A stretch of DNA of 64,000 nt from an uncultured Pseudomonadales bacterium (GTDB lineage: Bacteria; Patescibacteriota; Microgenomatia; UBA1400; PJMF01), in contig CAZNOF010000001.1 of the NCBI GenBank assembly GCA_964574595.1, positions 9,586 to 73,585 on the forward strand, in the 5' to 3' direction. The translations under genes were made by a program, and so were the position numbers. Position 1 is the stretch's first letter. Every line of letters begins with the position of its first letter. The notes beneath the pieces were generated by a model. It had not been told where the DNA came from. It saw only the letters and a program-made list of their open reading frames with translations, and did no database searches. Positions 5,032-55,792 of the stretch are shown in pieces.

Positions 5032-6894
5032 GTGGTTATGCATCTGCCTAGTGATTATAACCTCTATCTGGAGCAACTGGTACCAGTTCTGACTGAAGTT
5101 GCGGCCGCTGAAAGTTGGTCCGCCAAAGATTTAGCGCGAATCTTAAACAAATATCCAAAGCCAGATTCAGGCATTTTCTCTAAAGAGATATTAGTTCAAG
5201 CCTATCGAAAGCTAGCCGGAACCCATGGGTTACCTCCTTATAAAGATGAAGTCATGCAACGCCTCCAAATGAAGCCAACCAGAACCGGCTCTGGAGTGAC
5301 GCCAGTGACAGTTCTGACGAAGCCGTTCCCCTGTCCTGGCAAATGCATCTTTTGTCCAAATGACATCCGCATGCCAAAAAGTTACTTGTCAGATGAGCCA
5401 GGAGCTCAGCGAGCAGAACGGAACTCTTTTGACCCATACCTGCAAACCTATAACCGACTTCAAGCCTTTCAAAATATTGGTCACCAAATTGATAAAGTCG
5501 AGCTGATTATTTTGGGTGGCACTTGGTCATATTACCCAGAGGCTTATCAAATTTGGTTCATCAAAGAATGCTTCCGGGCGCTCAATGACTATGGTGAAAA
5601 AATTGACGACCGGGAACGGATTGAAAACTACTACCATGAAATGCGTGAAAGACTGAAAGAGGTTGAGACTGCCATTAAACATCGACCAGTGCCTGGAAAT
5701 AATCCCGTCATAAATAAGCAGGCAATGCAAGCTTACCAAGTGCATGGTGAAGAGCTTTCCAAGAGCTACAACCAGACTGTTTCTGAAATGTATGTGGCTC
5801 CAGAGAAAATTGGTGGATTTGATCAATATCAAACTGCTGATTGGAGCTCTCTTGAAGCAGAGCAACATCGAAATGAAACTGCCATCTCTCGAAATGTGGG
5901 TTTAGTCATCGAGACTCGCCCAGATAATATTTCAGAAGCTGAGGTCTTGAGAATTCGCCGACTGGGATGCACCAAAACGCAAATCGGATTTCAAAGTTTG
6001 AACGATGCGGTGCTGGACTTGAATAAACGTGGTCACGATGTGGCTGCTACCAGAAGAGCCGTCAAGTTGCTCAGGCAAGCCGGTTTCAAGATTCATGCTC
6101 ATTGGATGCCGAATCTATATGGTTCAAGTGTGGAAATTGATAAGGGTGATTACGATATTCTGTTCAACGATCTTGATTTCAAGCCAGATGAATTGAAGAT
6201 TTATCCTTGCTCACTGATTGAAAGTGCTGAGCTGATGCAGTATTACCAACGTGGTGAGTGGAAGCCTTACTCTGAGCCAGAGCTGCTAGATATCTTGACA
6301 TACTGTTTGACGCATACCCCGCCATTTTGTCGACTGACCCGTGTCATCCGTGATATTCCATCTACGGACATTGTGGTGGGAAACAAAAAAACCAACTTCC
6401 GAGAGATCGCTGAGAAGAAACTGACTGAATTGGGTGAAAAGAGCTCGGATATTCGAGCAAGAGAAATTCGTAAGCAAGAGGTCTCTGCTGAAGATCTGGA
6501 ACTAAACTTGGTGAAGTATGAGACAAGTGTCAGTCATGAAATTTTCCTCCAGTACATTGTCAAAGAATCAGGTAAGCCACCTGAACAGTCAAAAATCGCT
6601 GCCTTTTTACGATTAAGTATTCCCACAGTTCCCAACTTTATTGATGAACTAAAAGATGGCGCGATTATTCGAGAGATTCACGTTTACGGACAAACAGTCG
6701 GAATTGGCAAGAAGACTGAAGGCAAAGCCCAACACCTGGGTTTAGGACAGAAACTGATAGATGAAGCAGTTAAATTAACAAAAGAAGCCGGCCTGCGGAA
6801 GTTAGCTGTGATTTCAGCCATTGGTACTCGCGAGTATTATCGCAAACGGGGCTTCACTAAAGGTTCTCTTTATCAATTTCTGGACTGGGAATAA
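5032..6894 (+). CDS. Elp3-family radical SAM/GNAT protein (tRNA U34 cm5 modification enzyme homolog)
   Basis: Radical-SAM cluster motif CPGKCIFCPN; 620 aa; C-terminal GNAT-like fold (QHLGLGQKLIDEA...YYRKRGF). GTG at 5032 or ATG at 5038 as start. Confidence 0.85.
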   Translation: MVMHLPSDYNLYLEQLVPVLTEVAAAESWSAKDLARILNKYPKPDSGIFSKEILVQAYRKLAGTHGLPPYKDEVMQRLQMKPTRTGSGVTPVTVLTKPFPCPGKCIFCPNDIRMPKSYLSDEPGAQRAERNSFDPYLQTYNRLQAFQNIGHQIDKVELIILGGTWSYYPEAYQIWFIKECFRALNDYGEKIDDRERIENYYHEMRERLKEVETAIKHRPVPGNNPVINKQAMQAYQVHGEELSKSYNQTVSEMYVAPEKIGGFDQYQTADWSSLEAEQHRNETAISRNVGLVIETRPDNISEAEVLRIRRLGCTKTQIGFQSLNDAVLDLNKRGHDVAATRRAVKLLRQAGFKIHAHWMPNLYGSSVEIDKGDYDILFNDLDFKPDELKIYPCSLIESAELMQYYQRGEWKPYSEPELLDILTYCLTHTPPFCRLTRVIRDIPSTDIVVGNKKTNFREIAEKKLTELGEKSSDIRAREIRKQEVSAEDLELNLVKYETSVSHEIFLQYIVKESGKPPEQSKIAAFLRLSIPTVPNFIDELKDGAIIREIHVYGQTVGIGKKTEGKAQHLGLGQKLIDEAVKLTKEAGLRKLAVISAIGTREYYRKRGFTKGSLYQFLDWE

Positions 6895-13379: not shown

Positions 13380-13461
13380 GCCGAAGTGGTGAAATGGTAG
13401 ACACGTCAGACTTAAAATCTGATGCCTTAACAGCGTGAGGGTTCGAGTCCCTCCTTCGGCA
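13380..13461 (+). tRNA. tRNA-Leu (anticodon TAA), long variable arm
   Basis: Acceptor GCCGAAG/CTTCGGC+A, anticodon loop CTTAAAA, long variable arm, T-loop TTCGAGT. Extended -10 TGATATAAT about 20 nt upstream. Confidence 0.8.
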
Positions 13462-13477
13462 CAAGAATATATAGAAA

Positions 13478-14075: not shown

Positions 14076-14149
14076 CGGGGAATAGCTCAGATGGCTAGAG
14101 CGCGCGGTTTGGGACCGCGAGGCCGCAGGTTCGAGTCCTGTTTCCCCGA
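14076..14149 (+). tRNA. tRNA-Pro (anticodon TGG)
   Basis: Acceptor CGGGGAA/TTCCCCG+A, D-arm GCTCAGATGGCTAGAGC, anticodon loop TTTGGGA, T-loop TTCGAGT. TATAATATGA -10 box at 14051. Confidence 0.85.
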
Positions 14150-14312
14150 CAATTTGAACTAATTGGCTAATACGAATTATCATTCTTAGTTCATTGAACT
14201 AGGAGTTTCTGAGTTTAGAGAGGTTTCAGTTCAGTTGAGTAGGACTCTTTTAACTCAAATCTCAAATAGTTCAGATTAATTGAGTTACCATTGAACTAAT
14301 GACTCAACGTCA

Positions 14313-15059: not shown

Positions 15060-15075
15060 AGAGATTTAATCCAGT

Positions 15076-16182
15076 TTATTTTAGGAAATCGGAACTAAAG
15101 AGATCAAAGTTATTTAATCCCGTGAGCTCGAACTCTTCGAAAATTTTTGGTTTATTTTCATTACTAAAACTCGAGACCGTATCACCATGTCTCGCCAAGA
15201 TTACAATCTCATCTAATGAAACGGCATTTGCTAGGAATTGATCATTTGTAGTAGCTACAATCTGTATGTCTGCAGTTTCTGTTTTTACTTTTAAGAGCTT
15301 GGCTAATCTGTTTGCTCTTTCGAAATCTAAATCGGAGCCCAGATCGTCTATGAAAATAGATATTGTTCCTTTTTCAATTCTTGCCTTCAATAAATATTGA
15401 ATAGCCATTAGCAGTGATAAGACACCATACATACCTGAAGACATCTCCGGCTGAGGTATAGGATATTTAACGTCTTTTTCCTTGATGAATAATACCTTCG
15501 GTGAAAAGGCGGCATGTACTATACTTTGCAATAGGTTCTTACTTATTTTTTCAATATTAAAACCCACAAAGTTTAAATCATCTATTATTTTATTTATATC
15601 TTCGCTTTCTAATTTATCCCAGTATTCAGAAATGAGTTGTAACGAAGGCAAATCTGGTAATTTTGCTGTATTCATAAATAAGGAAATGCTACTGGGATTA
15701 AGGCCTGAAGAAAAACTATAGGACACTGAGTTTTCAGCCCATTCATACAAATTCTCAAAAAAAGGATATTCCTTTTCATCTCTTCTAATATGGAGAACTA
15801 ATTTATCTTTTGGGGGGTTGATAATAATGAAATCTTTAATAATTTCTGAAAAAAGCTTTGCTTCAGATACATTTCTAACTAATTTTGTTTTCCCATTAAC
15901 AACTATTTTCTCTTCCTCGATAATTCCATCTTTAATGGAACAACAATATTTATATATGTCATCTCCATTGGAAAAATCTGCGTCCCATTCTCCATTTGAG
16001 AATTTAGTTTGATTTGTTATTAACTGAGTTAATCCTGTGATTAGGCGATGGAATTTGCTTTTCCCAGTAGAATTTTTACCCATGATCAAAGAAAGATTTT
16101 TAAGGAAAGTATCTTCTAATTTCCACGCATTCTGTTTTGGCGTGTTAATATTTTCTTGGTACCTGATTCGCTTTAATTTCAT
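15076..16182 (-). CDS. ABC-type (AAA_21/AAA_15-like) ATPase, first gene of the candidate defense pair
   Basis: Walker A GKNSTGKS, signature-like PQPEMSSGM, Walker B ISIFIDDLGSDLD, H-loop IVATTND. Very AT-rich. Confidence 0.7.
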   Translation of the reverse strand: MKLKRIRYQENINTPKQNAWKLEDTFLKNLSLIMGKNSTGKSKFHRLITGLTQLITNQTKFSNGEWDADFSNGDDIYKYCCSIKDGIIEEEKIVVNGKTKLVRNVSEAKLFSEIIKDFIIINPPKDKLVLHIRRDEKEYPFFENLYEWAENSVSYSFSSGLNPSSISLFMNTAKLPDLPSLQLISEYWDKLESEDINKIIDDLNFVGFNIEKISKNLLQSIVHAAFSPKVLFIKEKDVKYPIPQPEMSSGMYGVLSLLMAIQYLLKARIEKGTISIFIDDLGSDLDFERANRLAKLLKVKTETADIQIVATTNDQFLANAVSLDEIVILARHGDTVSSFSNENKPKIFEEFELTGLNNFDLFSSDFLK

Positions 16183-18917: not shown

Positions 18918-19181
18918 ATGACAAACCCACTAGACAACCGGATTCCCGGTGATATCACTGAGTTAGAAGATTTAGTCAATGGCGTCACTCCAGAAGATGA
19001 CGACTTAGAAAAAGATGGTGAAGCCGGCATTGGCTCTTCCGAAACAGATTTAGAAGCAGATGACGATGTCAGTGAATTTGCTCAACAAGTTGGCATCGGC
19101 TCAGATGACGATGATGAAGCCCGACCGCTGAACATTGCGCGTGATGTTGAAATTGCCGAAAAAATTCACCGAAATAAATAG
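18918..19181 (+). CDS. small highly acidic protein
   Basis: 87 aa rich in Asp/Glu. GGAGGAAG SD upstream. Confidence 0.4.
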   Translation: MTNPLDNRIPGDITELEDLVNGVTPEDDDLEKDGEAGIGSSETDLEADDDVSEFAQQVGIGSDDDDEARPLNIARDVEIAEKIHRNK

Positions 19182-19199
19182 GTATATAATAGTAGCTCA

Positions 19200-19435
19200 T
19201 TCATAATTGAAAATTATCCGCCTGAGGAAGAGTCGCGTCTTCCAATTCTTCTCACAAGAAGCGGATCTTTGCAAAATCAAAGACGGGTCAGCCCGAGACA
19301 GCTGAGACCTCTACTCCATTAACTAGAGCGCAGGTTGCAAAGTCTACTTTGGTAACAAGGTAGAAAATAAGGGTGGTACCGCATTAACACTAATGCCCCT
19401 TTTGTTTCTTTATTAGAAGCAGAAGGGGTTTTTTT
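19200..19435 (+). promoter_or_regulatory. structured 5' leader ending in a terminator/SD-sequestering hairpin that abuts the start codon (candidate riboswitch or attenuator)
   Basis: TATATAAT -10 at ~19185. ~235-nt untranslated leader with several local hairpins. 9-bp stem CCCCTTTTG/CAGAAGGGG (19396-19428) followed by TTTTTTT running directly into ATG 19436. The only SD-like GAAGG lies in the 3' arm of the stem. Confidence 0.4.
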
Positions 19436-20404
19436 ATGCAAAATAACGTAATCTTGGATTGTGACACAGGAGAAGATGATGCGCTGGCAATCTTGATTGC
19501 TTTAGCAAATCATCTGCCGCTGAAGTTGCTCGTGACAAGTTATGGGAATACAAGTCTGGAAAACGCGACTCGGAATTCCTCACAGCTGCTGAGTCTAGCT
19601 GAGGCAAAAGACGTTCTGGTTTTGCCAGGATCAATTCAACCGCTTATGCCTCACTTAATTGAAAAAGAAGTTAGCGCAGGGAGTTTTGTGGGTAAGAATG
19701 GGTTATGTAACACCCAACTTTCCCCAAGTAAGTTTGATAATATTTTGAGCTCAACACCTGAGAGTTTTGTAGCGATTTTGAGTGAGTATGTTAGAAGACA
19801 CGGTAAGATCGATTACATTATTACTGGGCCATGTACAAATTTTGCAAAGCTCTGCACTGCTCTTGGCGATGATATTCATTACTACATCAATCAAGTATTT
19901 ATCATGGGGGGAGCCCTTTACGCACCAGGTAATTCCGGTCCGAAAGATTCGGTGACGAATCAGCAAGTGGCTGAGTTCAATTTCTACTGTGATCCACTGG
20001 CAGCGGGAAAAGTATTGAATTCAGGTCTACCAATTAAGCTGGTCAGCTGGGATGTAACTTCGACAGTTACTCTCAGCTTTGCCGAAATTCAGCATTTTCA
20101 GAGCCAGTCTGCCTCTGGTCAATTCGCCATTACCTTAATGCAAAATTTCTTTAAGTACTACGGTTTGGGTCACGATCGAAATTTTGAGTTAAATGATCCG
20201 TTGACTGTTCTGGCTTGTTTAGGCTGGGGAAACTACCGAGAAGAGAAAGTAAAAGTAGTCACAGAAAAAATGAACTATGGACAGTCGAATATTTGTGCTA
20301 ATGGTGCTCTTATAAGCTACTTCAATTTAACTGATAAAGGAAGAGAACAAGCTACTCAGAAGATGCTAACAGATTTGAAAATTGGTAAAAAAAGAGCTCG
20401 TTAG
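19436..20404 (+). CDS. nucleoside hydrolase (IU-NH family)
   Basis: N-terminal DCDTGEDDALAI Ca-binding aspartate cluster. ~320 aa typical of RihA/IunH. Confidence 0.85.
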   Translation: MQNNVILDCDTGEDDALAILIALANHLPLKLLVTSYGNTSLENATRNSSQLLSLAEAKDVLVLPGSIQPLMPHLIEKEVSAGSFVGKNGLCNTQLSPSKFDNILSSTPESFVAILSEYVRRHGKIDYIITGPCTNFAKLCTALGDDIHYYINQVFIMGGALYAPGNSGPKDSVTNQQVAEFNFYCDPLAAGKVLNSGLPIKLVSWDVTSTVTLSFAEIQHFQSQSASGQFAITLMQNFFKYYGLGHDRNFELNDPLTVLACLGWGNYREEKVKVVTEKMNYGQSNICANGALISYFNLTDKGREQATQKMLTDLKIGKKRAR

Positions 20405-21192: not shown

Positions 21193-21624
21193 ATGAATAT
21201 CCTCGTTGTCTTCGAGACGCAAAATGGAACGACTCAGTACGTCGCTGAGGTCATCCAGAAACAATTTCAAGACCTCGGACACCAGGTTACATTACATGGT
21301 GTTAAAGCCCAGGGTATGACTCCTCCTATGATGGACTACGACGTCATTCTCTTTGGAGCTCCTACCTATGAAGACGGTAAGCTTGAGAACTCAATGAGAG
21401 TGTTTATAGCGAGAAATAATCCAGATTTCAGTCAGAAAAAAGTGGCTGTTTTTGGCTTAGGCAATCGTTTTTACCCTCAATTTTGTATCTCAGCACAAAT
21501 TTTGGCTGATTGGGTTACCAAGAATAAAGGTACATTGTTGGTTGAGCCATTAAAAATTGACGGTTTCCCTGACAATTTAGCTCCTCTACAGTCTTGGATT
21601 GCGCAACTCTCAGCAAAGTTATGA
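21193..21624 (+). CDS. flavodoxin-like protein
   Basis: MNILVVFETQNGTTQYVAE flavodoxin N-terminal FMN-binding signature. 143 aa. Confidence 0.7.
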   Translation: MNILVVFETQNGTTQYVAEVIQKQFQDLGHQVTLHGVKAQGMTPPMMDYDVILFGAPTYEDGKLENSMRVFIARNNPDFSQKKVAVFGLGNRFYPQFCISAQILADWVTKNKGTLLVEPLKIDGFPDNLAPLQSWIAQLSAKL

Positions 21625-22808
21625 AACCAAAAGATCCTGCCCTTCTCGTTCTCGCGTTTATTATTTTCGTCAACTCCTTGGCCTATGGAACAATTATTCC
21701 ATTGCTATACCCATATGCGGTTCGATTTGGTATTACCCCACCTAGTTTGGCGCTGCTCTTTGCTTCTTACTCAGTCACTCAGTTTATTGCTACGCCTATT
21801 CTTGGCAGACTATCAGATCGCTTTGGCAGAAAGCCGATTTTATTGCTCTGTCTCCTGGGTACAAGTTTGTCTTTAGCCATGTTTGCAGTGGCTACAAATA
21901 TTCTGCTGCTTTTTATTGCTCGACTTTTTGATGGTATTACCGGTGGAAATATTTCTGTGGCTCAAGCCATGATTGCTGATAAGACGAGTGGTGAGCACCG
22001 TTCTAAATCCTTTGGGTTCCTGCTTGCAGCTTTTGGAGCTGGCTTTGTAGCTGGACCAGCGGTCGGCGGATTATTAAGTCAATTTGGTTTGACTGCTCCA
22101 TTCTGGTTTGCCGCGATTTTAGCGCTGTTGGGAACTATTTTAGGTCAGATTATCTTGAAAGAAACCTTGCCTAAAGAAGACAGGCAACCTTCGCATGAAC
22201 CACTTTTTAGAGTCAAAACCCTCTATGAGGCATTTTTCAAGCCGCTCACCGGTGAGATTTTAGCGATTAGTTTTTTACTGGCGATAGCCCAAAACGCCAT
22301 CATCATCGGCGTGCAATCCTACACCGTGGACAACCTGCAAATGTCAGCTGCCCAGACAGGTGTCATGTTTACCGCAGTCGGAATTATTAATATTTTGACG
22401 CAGGTAGTGGGTTTGCGATATTTGCTGCATAAGTTTAAAAACACGGTTCAAGTCATTTCGGTTCTGCTGTTCCTTTCCACAATTTCGCTTTTAGCCCTTT
22501 TCTTTGTGCACACTATCAACTCGTTCCTAATCGTATTATTTGCGTTTGCCGTGTTTAGTTCGCCGATTGGCGCGATTATTACTGGCCTATTATCAGAACG
22601 AACCAAAGATGAAGACCAAGGTGGAATTTTAGGCTTAAATCAGTCGTATAACTCGCTGGGTCAAATCATTGGACCACTTTTAGCTGGGGCGATTGCGGCT
22701 CGAATTGCCACGAACAATATTTTTCTGGCATCAGCCGGTGTTTTTGTGGCAACACTTCTAGTGAGTGTGATGTCTCAGAAAAAAGCGACTCACAAACTTG
22801 ATTTGTAA
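21621..22808 (+). CDS. MFS transporter
   Basis: MFS motif A GRLSDRFGRKP, 12 predicted TM helices. Start set at ATG 21621, overlapping the upstream stop as ATGA. Confidence 0.8.
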   Translation: MKPKDPALLVLAFIIFVNSLAYGTIIPLLYPYAVRFGITPPSLALLFASYSVTQFIATPILGRLSDRFGRKPILLLCLLGTSLSLAMFAVATNILLLFIARLFDGITGGNISVAQAMIADKTSGEHRSKSFGFLLAAFGAGFVAGPAVGGLLSQFGLTAPFWFAAILALLGTILGQIILKETLPKEDRQPSHEPLFRVKTLYEAFFKPLTGEILAISFLLAIAQNAIIIGVQSYTVDNLQMSAAQTGVMFTAVGIINILTQVVGLRYLLHKFKNTVQVISVLLFLSTISLLALFFVHTINSFLIVLFAFAVFSSPIGAIITGLLSERTKDEDQGGILGLNQSYNSLGQIIGPLLAGAIAARIATNNIFLASAGVFVATLLVSVMSQKKATHKLDL

Positions 22809-22842: not shown

Positions 22843-22915
22843 GCGGGTATAGTTCACCGGTAGAATGACTCCCTTCCAAGGAGTAGAAGCGGGTTCGATT
22901 CCCGCTACCCGCTCA
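22843..22915 (+). tRNA. tRNA-Gly (anticodon TCC)
   Basis: Acceptor GCGGGTA/TACCCGC, anticodon loop CTTCCAA, T-loop TTCGATT. -10 box CGTATAAT at ~22824. Exact ends +/-2 nt. Confidence 0.75.
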
Positions 22916-39509: not shown

Positions 39510-39586
39510 GGGTGGATGACGGGACTCGAACCCGCGACCTCTGCTTTCACAGAGCAGCGCTCTAACCAACTGAGCTACAACCACCA
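39510..39586 (-). tRNA. tRNA-His (anticodon GTG) with encoded G-1
   Basis: Reverse complement GGTGGTTGTAGCTCAGTTGGTTAGAGC...CTGTGAA...GGTTCGAGTCC...CATCCACC. Extra 5' G pairs with discriminator C. Confidence 0.8.
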
Positions 39587-48361: not shown

Positions 48362-48434
48362 CCATTAACGATAATTCAAAGCAGAAAGTTTTGCAAGAAG
48401 GATCTTGTGACTGAGGAAAGCAAAAGTGTATTTG

Positions 48435-48508
48435 TGTGCCAGGCGGGACTCGAACCCACGACCTGCGGCTTAGAAGGCAGCTGCTCTATCCAGCTGAGCT
48501 ACTGGCAC
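48435..48508 (-). tRNA. tRNA-Arg (anticodon TCT)
   Basis: Reverse complement GTGCCAGTAGCTCAGCTGGATAGAGCAGCTGCCTTCTAAGCCGCAGGTCGTGGGTTCGAGTCCCGCCTGGCACA. Anticodon loop CTTCTAA. Confidence 0.8.
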
Positions 48509-48525
48509 ATACAGGCTATTATACC

Positions 48526-48559
48526 AAAACCCCCTCAGCTAAGCTGAAGGGGTTTTTTT
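48526..48559. terminator. bidirectional intrinsic terminator
   Basis: AAAA-CCCCCTCAGC-TAA-GCTGAAGGGG-TTTTTTT. Confidence 0.6.
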
Positions 48560-54316: not shown

Positions 54317-55765
54317 TTAGTAGGACTGAGCAAATAACCATTGGTGCGTCGCAGGTTTGCCACATTTGATACAAGTACCTTGTTCTTCTTTCACATTTCC
54401 TTCTTCGTCAATAAATGGCAGACAGCGAGTACTGGCTTTGGTCTCGTCTTTAATTTGTTTCTCGCAACTACTTTCTTCACACCAAAAAGCTCTGATGAAT
54501 CCTTTTGTAGTATTCATAATATTTTTAAATGATGCGTAGTCTTTCACTTCAAATGTTAGTTTTGCACGACTCTCTACGGCAGTTTGATACATCTTCTTTT
54601 GGATCTCGTTTAAGGCTGATTTAATTGATTCGGCGGCTTTGTCAGTAGAAATAACTTGACTCTGATGGGAGTAACGAACTTTGAGTTGCAATTCTTTGGC
54701 TGCTAATTCTCGCTCGCCTACTACCACTGTTAACGGCACGCCTTGTAATTCAGCATCATTTAATTTCCAGCCCATACTGTAGTTTTGTCGTTTATCAAAC
54801 ACGCAGCGGACATCAATGTCTCTGAGATTTTTTTGAAGTGATTCGCAGTAAGACAAAACTTCTGCATTTTCACCTTTTGCAGGCACGATCACGATCTGGG
54901 TTGGAGCAATTCTTGGCGGTAAGACTAAGCCATCATCATCACCATGCGTCATGACTAATCCGCCAATTACTCTGGTAGAAAAACCAAAACTGGTTTGCCA
55001 AGCATAATCAGTTTTACCTTCCTCATCTTGGAACGCAATGTTAAAAGCATCTTTTTTTGAGAAGTGTTGTGCCAGATCGTGACTAGTTCCGGCTTGCAAG
55101 GCTTTGCCATCAGGCATTAGGGCTTCCACAGTCGTCGTCATTTCTGCGCCAGCGAACTTTTCGGCATTACTTTTACGGCCTTTGATGACAGGAATGGCTA
55201 AGTCTTCTTCTAACACTTTTCGATATGCTTCAAGACCGTCAAGCACCATGGCTATGGCTTCTTCATGTTTTGCATGAGCTGTATGCGCTTCTTGCCACAG
55301 AAATTCAGTTGTTCTTAAGAAGAAATAGGTCCGTTTTTCCCAACGCACCACGTTATTCCATTGATTAAGACTGAGTGGTAAATCTCGATATGACTGAACC
55401 CATTTACTGTACATTTCGTACATGATGGTTTCAGAAGTTGGTCGAACGACGAGTTTTTCGGTCAGTTCCTCACCACCGGCATGCGTCACAACTGCTAATT
55501 CAGGGGCAAAACCTTCCACGTGCTCTGCTTCACGACTCAAAAAGGACAGAGGGATAAATAATGGAAAGTAGGCATTTTTGACACCTAGATCTTTTAATAA
55601 TGGATCAAGTTTCTTTTGAATGTTTTCCCAAATTTCGAAGCCATTTGGTCGGATGACCATGCAGCCCTTGACGGGTGAATAATCAGCTAATTGGGCAAGT
55701 TGAATAACTTGGGTGTACCACTTGCTCATGTCTTCAGATTTTGGGGTCAGTTGTTTTTTTGCCAT
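54317..55765 (-). CDS. proS: proline--tRNA ligase, archaeal/eukaryote-type
   Basis: Class II motifs, no bacterial INS editing domain, C-terminal Zn domain CIKCGK...HQWLFAQSY. Confidence 0.9.
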   Translation of the reverse strand: MAKKQLTPKSEDMSKWYTQVIQLAQLADYSPVKGCMVIRPNGFEIWENIQKKLDPLLKDLGVKNAYFPLFIPLSFLSREAEHVEGFAPELAVVTHAGGEELTEKLVVRPTSETIMYEMYSKWVQSYRDLPLSLNQWNNVVRWEKRTYFFLRTTEFLWQEAHTAHAKHEEAIAMVLDGLEAYRKVLEEDLAIPVIKGRKSNAEKFAGAEMTTTVEALMPDGKALQAGTSHDLAQHFSKKDAFNIAFQDEEGKTDYAWQTSFGFSTRVIGGLVMTHGDDDGLVLPPRIAPTQIVIVPAKGENAEVLSYCESLQKNLRDIDVRCVFDKRQNYSMGWKLNDAELQGVPLTVVVGERELAAKELQLKVRYSHQSQVISTDKAAESIKSALNEIQKKMYQTAVESRAKLTFEVKDYASFKNIMNTTKGFIRAFWCEESSCEKQIKDETKASTRCLPFIDEEGNVKEEQGTCIKCGKPATHQWLFAQSY

Positions 55766-55792
55766 AGATTCCTATGCGGATTATACATGCAG

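Follow-up and report, generated by a model that had tools for sequence, protein, structure and literature searches.

The 64,000-nt stretch of DNA considered here (hereafter the window; contig CAZNOF010000001.1 of assembly GCA_964574595.1) carries a long untranslated leader in front of a gene for a nucleoside hydrolase, and the nature of this leader is the subject of the present analysis. The gap between the upstream 87-aa open reading frame (ORF; stop at 19181) and the hydrolase ATG (19436) measures 254 nt; a first-pass annotation, made from the letters of the window, had called this unusually long, a description that holds only in relative terms, since gaps of more than 250 nt also occur at several other places between ORFs of 120 aa or longer. 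The same annotation had read the region as a riboswitch-type leader in which a terminator both stops transcription and hides the Shine-Dalgarno (SD) sequence, with a nucleobase or nucleoside as the plausible ligand; the terminator platform is borne out below, whereas the sensor class is not. The downstream gene had been named correctly as a nucleoside hydrolase (IU_nuc_hydro, PF01156, Pfam E 1.6e-52); its transcription unit holds no other gene, and the next gene lies on the opposite strand. The features on which the argument draws, with the basis of each (MFE, minimum free energy), are the following:

19183 to 19190, + strand: -10-like box TATATAAT, a possible promoter (read from the sequence)
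19217 to 19265, + strand: three-way junction where Stem I would be expected, with base helix UCCGC/GCGGA (MFE -14.7 kcal/mol)
19226 to 19243, + strand: hairpin b', GGAAGA-GUCGCG-UCUUCC (MFE fold)
19232 to 19237, + strand: hexaloop GUCGCG of that hairpin, with candidate specifier CGC (Arg), a U before it and the purine G after it (low confidence, by analogy)
19246 to 19260, + strand: hairpin c', UUCUU-CUCAC-AAGAA (MFE fold)
19266 to 19283, + strand: hairpin UCUUUG-CAAAAU-CAAAGA in the position of Stem II, with no S-turn (Rfam on the leader only, MFE)
19284 to 19305, + strand: Stem IIA/B-like pseudoknot, with IIA as CGG(G)/(C)CCG at 19284-19295 (Rfam alignment)
19309 to 19328, + strand: extra hairpin CUCUA-CUCCAUUAAC-UAGAG between pseudoknot and Stem III (folds; an insertion in the Rfam alignment)
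19338 to 19366, + strand: first part of the discriminator, comprising a CAAAG purine string, Stem III (19343-19351 with 19356-19364), a GUAA loop and AA (MFE, Rfam)
19369 to 19401, + strand: antiterminator, comprising helix A1 (AAGGG/CCCUU), the 7-nt bulge UGGUACC (19374-19380), helix A2 (GCAUUA/UAAUGC) and loop ACAC (MFE, Rfam)
19395 to 19435, + strand: intrinsic terminator, a 15-bp hairpin (19395-19429) with a 5-nt loop and a U-tract to 19435 (terminator scan)
19421 to 19428, + strand: SD-like AGAAGGGG, 7 nt 5' of the AUG, in the 3' arm of the terminator (sequence)
19436 to 20404, + strand: the regulated gene, an IU-family nucleoside hydrolase of 322 aa, monocistronic (ORF map, Pfam)

The 3' half of the leader matches a T-box. 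Rfam, run at gathering and permissive thresholds on the window, on a 1.5-kb stretch and on the leader alone, returned the T-box family (RF00230) at 29.2 bits (E 3e-4 for the 1.5 kb, 0.013 for the window as a whole) and, on the leader alone, at 28.5 bits (E 7.7e-5) as the only significant family, with the score contributed entirely by the 3' half. Stem III, its purine string, helices A1 and A2 and the bulge between them are the parts listed in a review for the T-box "discriminator" (PMC7583486), and they are present here in that order. The 9-bp Stem III is flanked by sequences that agree with the RRRxG...AA string described there at four of the five flanking positions and at the AA, and this first part aligns to the Rfam model with posteriors of 0.9-1.0; the T-box core AGGGUGGUACCGC is exact at 19370-19382 (posterior ~1.0), and its 11-mer GGTGGTACCGC occurs as a single exact copy in the window. 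When the segment 19338-19402 is folded in isolation, its MFE structure is Stem III, A1, the 7-nt bulge and A2 (z -2.6). Where A2 adjoins the bulge, its first pair is the Watson-Crick pair G19381-C19396 in place of the usual T-box G.U wobble; G-C at this site is a rarer natural variant seen in the glyQS leaders of S. pneumoniae and S. pyogenes, for which evidence has been cited that the steric filter still works (PMC11404447). The heptamer CAUUAAC occurs twice, in the loop of the extra hairpin (19317-19323) and in the 5' strand of A2 (19382-19388); the loop copy could compete for the 3' strand of A2, and such a repeat is expected by chance in 250 nt.

Immediately downstream lies the terminator. 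The 9-bp stem CCCCUUUUG/CAGAAGGGG recognized by the first-pass annotation (19396-19404 with 19420-19428), the T7 and the ATG without a spacer are all present, as is its sole SD-like run, AGAAGGGG, within the 3' arm; the stem proves to be the core of the longer 15-bp hairpin (-23.1 kcal/mol), whose T7 occupies 19429-19435 and is followed at once by the ATG. The 5' arm of this hairpin overlaps the 3' strands of A2 and A1, with bases 19395-19401 common to both structures, so that antiterminator (-8.7 kcal/mol) and terminator are mutually exclusive; when the next 34 nt are added to 19338-19402, the terminator dominates the fold. The SD-like AGAAGGGG is paired in the terminator fold and unpaired in the antiterminator fold. 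Compared with shuffled sequences, the complete leader is the better folded (z -4.0), and the source of this signal is its 3' part (3' 100 nt, z -5.3).

The first-pass annotation had favoured an aptamer for a nucleobase or nucleoside, and a new aptamer of this kind in the 5' 150 nt, driving the choice of terminator while the T-box likeness is incidental, would suit a nucleoside hydrolase that stands near a major facilitator superfamily (MFS) transporter whose sister orthologue weakly matches a nucleoside symporter; it would also give a role to a 5' domain that has none assigned. Like the known purine and 2'-deoxyguanosine (2'-dG) riboswitches, the leader is long and structured and places a terminator platform before a gene of nucleoside metabolism. 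Those riboswitches differ from it, however, in having an aptamer that Rfam does not find here and in not carrying an antiterminator built for the 3' end of tRNA. Metabolite aptamers (purine, 2'-dG, preQ1, ZTP, ykkC/guanidine, PRPP, xanthine and others) were sought and none appeared at E<=1 in the window or at E<=10 on the leader alone, where the one significant match was to an unrelated element, the T-box; an incidental likeness to the latter is disfavoured as chance (E 7.7e-5). The 5' half is no more structured than shuffles, the leader is absent 5' of orthologous genes, and a complete apparatus for binding the tRNA end (the UGGUACC bulge, the purine string of Stem III) would be needless in a metabolite switch. 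We therefore abandon the nucleobase assignment and consider a new aptamer very improbable.

The same terminator might alternatively be governed by a protein, such as PyrR or another RNA-binding protein, a form of control that would suit a gene of pyrimidine salvage and for which Rfam offers a weak match to the PyrR site (RF00515) at 19343-19434 (21.4 bits, E 0.64). This match falls far below the gathering score of 54, owes its score to the terminator and to A/U runs, and includes numerous non-canonical pairs; moreover, no pyrR was found among those window ORFs that were scanned, a subset of all ORFs. Protein-mediated attenuation is thus scarcely credible here. A leader peptide was likewise considered; the sole ORF (19207-19305, TTG start, 32 aa) has no SD sequence and was rejected.

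In our judgement the leader is probably a reduced, tRNA-sensing T-box transcription attenuator in front of the nucleoside hydrolase. Since a T-box antiterminator competes with the terminator, the expected ligand would be an uncharged tRNA rather than a nucleobase or nucleoside, and from the established mechanism of the T-box family (PMC7583486) we infer both tRNA binding and the sensing of its charge. The RNA would begin near 19197 or be extended from transcription of the genes upstream. In the default state, the 15-bp hairpin would form and release the RNA within the U7 tract, short of the AUG, while any RNA of full length would have its SD sequence buried. The 3' ACCA of an uncharged tRNA would pair with UGGU of the bulge (19374-19377) and stack on helix A1, and the bound tRNA would hold the weaker antiterminator (19369-19401) until the polymerase has passed, leaving the SD sequence free; a charged tRNA would not fit, and the terminator would win. 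The identity of the tRNA would probably be read by the short 5' domain (19217-19305), the long Stem I having been lost, with the codon perhaps displayed in a hairpin loop. As to the start site, the -10 box that had been proposed is present as TATATAAT, although the promoter scan called no + strand promoter at 19183-19190 because its -35 is poor; because homology to a sister genome ends with the stop codon that immediately precedes this box, a promoter dedicated to the leader, if there is one, has to fall within the new segment.

That sister genome, GCA_040384245.1, whose enolase is 91% identical to that of the window (the first named enolase relatives are from Chloroflexi, at 57-59%), supplies a second T-box, located ~4 kb from the enolase in a 333-nt gap 5' of a bacterial-type proS (L154 5547-5790). 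It scores 32.7 bits in Rfam (E 0.001), also far under the gathering score of 93, and it shares with the window leader the GCAAAG string, a Stem III of 9 bp capped by a GNRA loop, the UGGUACC bulge, a G-C pair where A2 begins, an additional hairpin 5' of Stem III and a long terminator (with U6 in the sister). Its IIA/B pseudoknot (CGG-AUUAAAA-CCG-UAAUC, with a near-canonical F-box) stands at the same place as the putative one of the window. Comparison of the 18 discriminator pairs of the two leaders shows nine identical, two changed on one side, seven compensatory and none broken. On this sequence evidence the lineage does use T-boxes, and as the sister proS T-box is equally poor for Rfam, the low score in the window would be a property of the lineage and not a sign of decay. 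The two elements differ in that the sister's terminator lies 45 nt from the AUG with the SD sequence uncovered, its gene encodes an aminoacyl-tRNA synthetase (aaRS), and its 7-nt loop displays a cognate Pro codon, while the window has a 6-nt loop whose candidate codon is assigned by analogy.

The sister leader guides the reading of the 5' domain. Its only looped Pro codon, CCU, stands in the 7-nt loop C-U-CCU-A-A (5582-5588) of a plain hairpin (L154 5575-5595), the second in the leader and ~42 nt 5' of the pseudoknot; the order of hairpins in the window is the same (hairpin, b', small hairpin, hairpin, IIA/B, hairpin, Stem III) and the spacing nearly equal. The second hairpin of the window, GGAAGA-GUCGCG-UCUUCC, had been seen by the first-pass annotation and was found at 19226-19243. 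By analogy, its hexaloop may display CGC, a specifier for tRNA-Arg, and the pattern of GUCGCG fits the TBDB database's rule for specifiers, in which a purine closing the loop on its 3' side comes after the codon (PMC7778990). This assignment is tentative and is held weakly because the 5' halves are dissimilar, because two sequences only are compared and because other loops offer codons: alternative folds present AGA in an alternative hairpin and CAC at 19253-55 (loop 19251-55), both rankable only through the analogy with the sister T-box, and the loop of the extra hairpin (19314-23) offers CCA. The bulge UGGU suits a tRNA with discriminator A, which among the window tRNAs is carried by tRNA-Arg(UCU), tRNA-Leu and tRNA-Pro (tRNA-Gly has U and tRNA-His C); a tRNA reading CGC is not among the window tRNA genes. 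Separately, the loop of the extra hairpin contains CUCCA, resembling the sister's specifier loop CUCCU.

Farther 3', the Rfam T-box model aligns ACGGGUCAGCCCGAGA to aCGguuauuucCGUUA as Stem IIA and F-box with a posterior of ~0.8, although the F-box-like sequence is CCCGAGA rather than CCGUUA. The pseudoknot could be closed by pairing the loop UCAG (19288-91) with CUGA (19302-05), a duplex of -6.4 kcal/mol, or alternatively GUC (19287-89) with GAC (19297-99). The Stem II hairpin (19266-19283) has no GAA/AGUA S-turn. The leader was also searched by hand for a specifier-type arrangement, and the sole AGUA...GAA-AUU-A run, at 19191-19216 (AGUA at 19191-19194; Ile codon), was set aside, as it lies beside the -10-like box and has no supporting helices.

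The absence of a canonical specifier loop invites the suggestion that the element is a discriminator-only sensor, which would bind any uncharged tRNA with discriminator A and report the bulk level of uncharged tRNA. The discriminator is complete and has been stated to suffice for sensing charge. The looped cognate codon of the sister and the IIA/B-like pseudoknot apparently retained here make sense, however, only with anticodon reading, and capture of tRNA during transcription would be slow without the contacts of Stem I (PMC7583486); we therefore judge a sensor of this kind improbable.

Several observations weigh against a functional tRNA attenuator, and they concern both the 5' half of the leader and its distribution. 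The Rfam scores of 28.5-29.2 bits are far under the gathering score of 93. Canonical Stem I is not placed by Rfam: one alignment (19175-19220) has six non-canonical pairs, skips 49 positions and would overlap the -10-like box, and another, on the leader alone, skips 95 positions for the same score. In the likely transcript, a hand search found neither a kink-turn (K-turn) with proper G.A pairs nor an AGUA/GAA S-turn, and no double T-loop (AGAGA followed by a helix and a UGxRA loop) was found in 19195-19342 by sequence or by the Rfam model. The 5' 148 nt fold no better than shuffles (z -1.0), and the three-way junction at 19217-19265 has several alternative folds within 2 kcal/mol. The 5' halves of the window and sister T-boxes lack sequence similarity (z -0.6), and the argument for a common architecture, being one of analogy, depends on the order and spacing of hairpins in two sequences. 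Transcriptional T-boxes generally need a long Stem I for fast capture of tRNA (PMC7583486); either this lineage manages without one or the element is impaired. Lastly, no connection of the regulated gene with amino acids is known, and it lies outside the usual target classes of T-boxes (aaRS, biosynthesis and transport).

The distribution of the leader points the same way. The closest orthologues of the hydrolase were sought in 185,000 species genomes, and the set compared, which comprises 80 genome loci, the sister locus in synteny with the window and four metagenome contigs encoding the closest proteins, shows neither the leader nor a T-box. The closest genome orthologues come from Saccharibacteria/Patescibacteria metagenome-assembled genomes (53-58% identity); in the closest orthologues overall (53-64% amino acid identity), the hydrolase is preceded by anything from a 20-nt overlap to a ~60-nt gap or sits in an operon, and the four closest metagenome proteins (55-59%) likewise follow a short gap or overlap. 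A T-box-type UGGNACC context was found within 450 nt at none of the 84 orthologous loci with enough upstream sequence: a match in L010 lies within a coding region, and heptamer matches in L007, L013, L019 and L072 are in coding sequence or a tRNA. When metagenomes were scanned for the hydrolase motif DxDxxGxDD preceded at 58-88 nt by a T-box core, 68 stretches emerged, with a hydrolase in L090 and L113 only; Rfam finds no T-box in these two, which are chance matches. Both are unrelated, GC-rich hydrolase loci that carry UGUGGUGGNACCGC ~60 nt 5' of the start codon (L090 ~2336 and L113 ~2047, minus strand), a shared sequence that is probably due to chance, given how the scan selected them.

The sister locus (L085 11251-14042), found by way of the upstream 270-aa protein, suggests how the leader came to its present place. 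Its genes encode, in order, proteins of 269 and 90 aa, a 619-aa fusion of a phosphoribosyltransferase (PRTase) and a HAD domain, the hydrolase, a minus-strand gene, a flavodoxin, an MFS transporter and tRNA-Gly; the sister hydrolase is 64% identical to that of the window and overlaps the fusion gene, and from the minus-strand gene onward the order is as in the window. The two DNAs are homologous as far as the stop codon that ends the 87-aa gene, and again from a point within the hydrolase; the sister has no match to the leader, and tblastn detected no remnant of the 619-aa gene in the window leader. The PRTase+HAD gene is missing from the window altogether. In a third relative (GCA_964746005.1, L156 15638-19660) the hydrolase stands behind a HAD-type gene, and in relatives generally (L085 and L156, together with the upstream genes in L002 and L084) it is the last gene of an operon opened by a PRTase+HAD fusion or a HAD-type hydrolase, an arrangement that fits salvage from nucleotide to nucleoside to base. 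The operon in L156 is preceded by a 573-nt gap (15066-15637) in which Rfam gave no match at E<=1 and no T-box motif occurs. Judged from these gene orders, the pairing arose when the leader replaced the first gene (PRTase/HAD) of a salvage operon. No other copy of the leader was found in the window or in the comparison loci. As the leader is absent from all 85 orthologous hydrolase loci, the sister and the metagenome matches, the pairing of T-box and hydrolase is, as far as can be seen from sequence, unique to this genome and would represent a lineage-specific recruitment.

The same events could have left behind a relic. The deletion of the PRTase/HAD gene may have joined the hydrolase to the remains of a misplaced T-box whose decoding domain is gone, which would now act as a leaky constitutive attenuator, or else would terminate transcription of the genes upstream, in neither case responding to tRNA. 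Such an origin would account for the lack of a recognizable Stem I, for a 5' half not structured beyond chance, for a target without a link to amino acids and for a leader that is missing from the sister and from all orthologous loci, with homology ending at the upstream stop codon; small genomes under drift can, besides, tolerate leftover elements. What tells against decay is the state of the 3' half, where all 35 pairs are intact (Stem III 9/9, A1 5/5, A2 6/6 and terminator 15/15) and the T-box core is perfect; a dead element at a distance of ~65% amino acid identity to the sister should be damaged. Furthermore, a terminator of -23 kcal/mol with U7 abutting the AUG and the SD sequence covered would nearly silence the gene unless relieved, and the sister T-box, in front of an aaRS gene, looks equally "degenerate" to Rfam. 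On balance a relic seems unlikely, if deserving of serious consideration, and an attenuator responsive to tRNA is the reading that we retain.

Whether or not it functions, the element is evidently derived from a T-box by its sequence: the discriminator features are there, with the tolerated G-C of A2 as the one departure, while the features of the decoding half, a score above the Rfam threshold and a target of the usual type are wanting. It is not a standard member of the family, its architecture, host lineage and target all being unusual. With the class I T-box leaders (RF00230; e.g., Bacillus tyrS and glyQS), it shares the core, the UGGNACC bulge, A1/A2, a purine-flanked Stem III, an antiterminator 3' strand that doubles as the 5' arm of a terminator with a U-tract, and, putatively, an upstream IIA/B-like pseudoknot. 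Unlike them, it has no long Stem I, K-turn, specifier internal loop with S-turn, double T-loop or Stem II S-turn; its A2 begins with G-C rather than G.U; and its terminator, which also hides the SD sequence and abuts the AUG, precedes a nucleoside hydrolase. A further comparison is with the class II ileS T-boxes of Actinobacteria, those whose Stem I is of intermediate length or "ultrashort" (Sherwood et al., 2015, summarized in PMC7583486). In that summary they too have no elbow-binding double T-loop, present the codon on a short element accompanied by a Stem II/IIA-B region and sequester the SD sequence in the OFF state; in contrast to the window leader, they are described there as acting on translation only, with no terminator U-tract, as keeping the Stem II S-turn and as preceding ileS.

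T-boxes have been placed in Firmicutes, Actinobacteria, Chloroflexi, Deinococcus-Thermus and a few delta-proteobacteria (PMC3766115; PMC2494555), and in one published survey they precede aaRS genes (62%), biosynthesis genes (18%) and transport genes (12%), with no nucleoside hydrolase in its supplements; in the literature searched, no paper links T-boxes to Saccharibacteria/Patescibacteria or to nucleoside hydrolases. T-boxes are generally regarded as limited to few phyla and to genes of amino acid supply, and the transcriptional ones as requiring a long Stem I to catch tRNA in time. A bolder proposal, which we put forward as rather doubtful, is that the window and sister leaders belong to a minimal transcriptional T-box specific to this lineage of uncultured, small-genome bacteria, presumed from the nearest hydrolases to be relatives of Saccharibacteria/Patescibacteria, and without K-turn, S-turn or elbow T-loops, in which a looped codon would kiss the anticodon loop beside a IIA/B pseudoknot and a standard discriminator, and that one of them has been recruited outside amino acid metabolism, such that the charging of one tRNA (perhaps tRNA-Arg) would directly control the breakdown of nucleosides.

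If functional, the leader would widen the T-box regulon to nucleoside catabolism, would suggest that bacteria which synthesize neither amino acids nor nucleosides tie amino acid starvation to the consumption of scavenged nucleosides, and would offer a natural minimal T-box for studying what co-transcriptional sensing of tRNA requires; if non-functional, it would be a dated example of a regulatory element stranded through gene loss. The physiological logic, like the identity of the tRNA, is speculative: a scavenger of both amino acids and nucleosides might release ribose from nucleosides when an amino acid runs out, amino acid starvation thereby leading to nucleoside breakdown. Arginine is a known energy source in some Saccharibacteria (PMC8764695).

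The hydrolase itself scores under every NCBIfam equivalog cut-off. It retains the DCDTGEDD and DP motifs (calcium/ribose motifs), and its residue 253, the counterpart of the catalytic His239 in E. coli RihA, is Asn (ELNDPLTV vs PLHDPCTI); the sister orthologue likewise has Asn at this position, and the substrate range of the enzyme may be unusual, given Asn in place of the catalytic His. Two genes 3' of the hydrolase lies the MFS transporter (21594-22808), whose sister orthologue (L085 15277-16464) matches a nucleoside:H+ symporter family weakly (PF03825) and which may be the uptake partner of the hydrolase.

Elsewhere in the window, a bidirectional terminator, CCCCCUCAGC-UAA-GCUGAAGGGG with A-run and U7 flanks, separates tRNA-Arg(UCU) from the following ORF at 48527-48559. 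Its tail (GAAGGGG-U7) is nearly identical to that of the T-box terminator, the only part of the leader that resembles another sequence there, and the genome does employ intrinsic terminators comparable to that of the leader. The window has six tRNA genes (123-196, 13380-13462, 14076-14150, 22843-22914, 39510-39584 and 48434-48508), of which only that for tRNA-Gln encodes the 3' CCA; since the other five do not, CCA must be added after transcription, a step on which any T-box here depends.

The bacterial-type proS of the sister genome (569 aa, with an editing domain) is syntenic with window 54317-55792, where the window and two more distant relatives (L157 and L158) have instead an archaeal-type prolyl-tRNA synthetase (~482 aa) with no T-box leader; no T-box was found at the proS loci of these two relatives. 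The gap before the archaeal-type gene is 27-28 nt in the window and in L158, and 370 nt, free of T-box motifs, in L157. From these sequences, the arrangement in the sister genome looks like an in-place replacement of proS along with its T-box. Finally, the window encodes at 5032-6894 an Elp3-type radical-SAM/GNAT tRNA-modification enzyme (TIGR01211, E 1e-141), a type of enzyme that is uncommon in bacteria.

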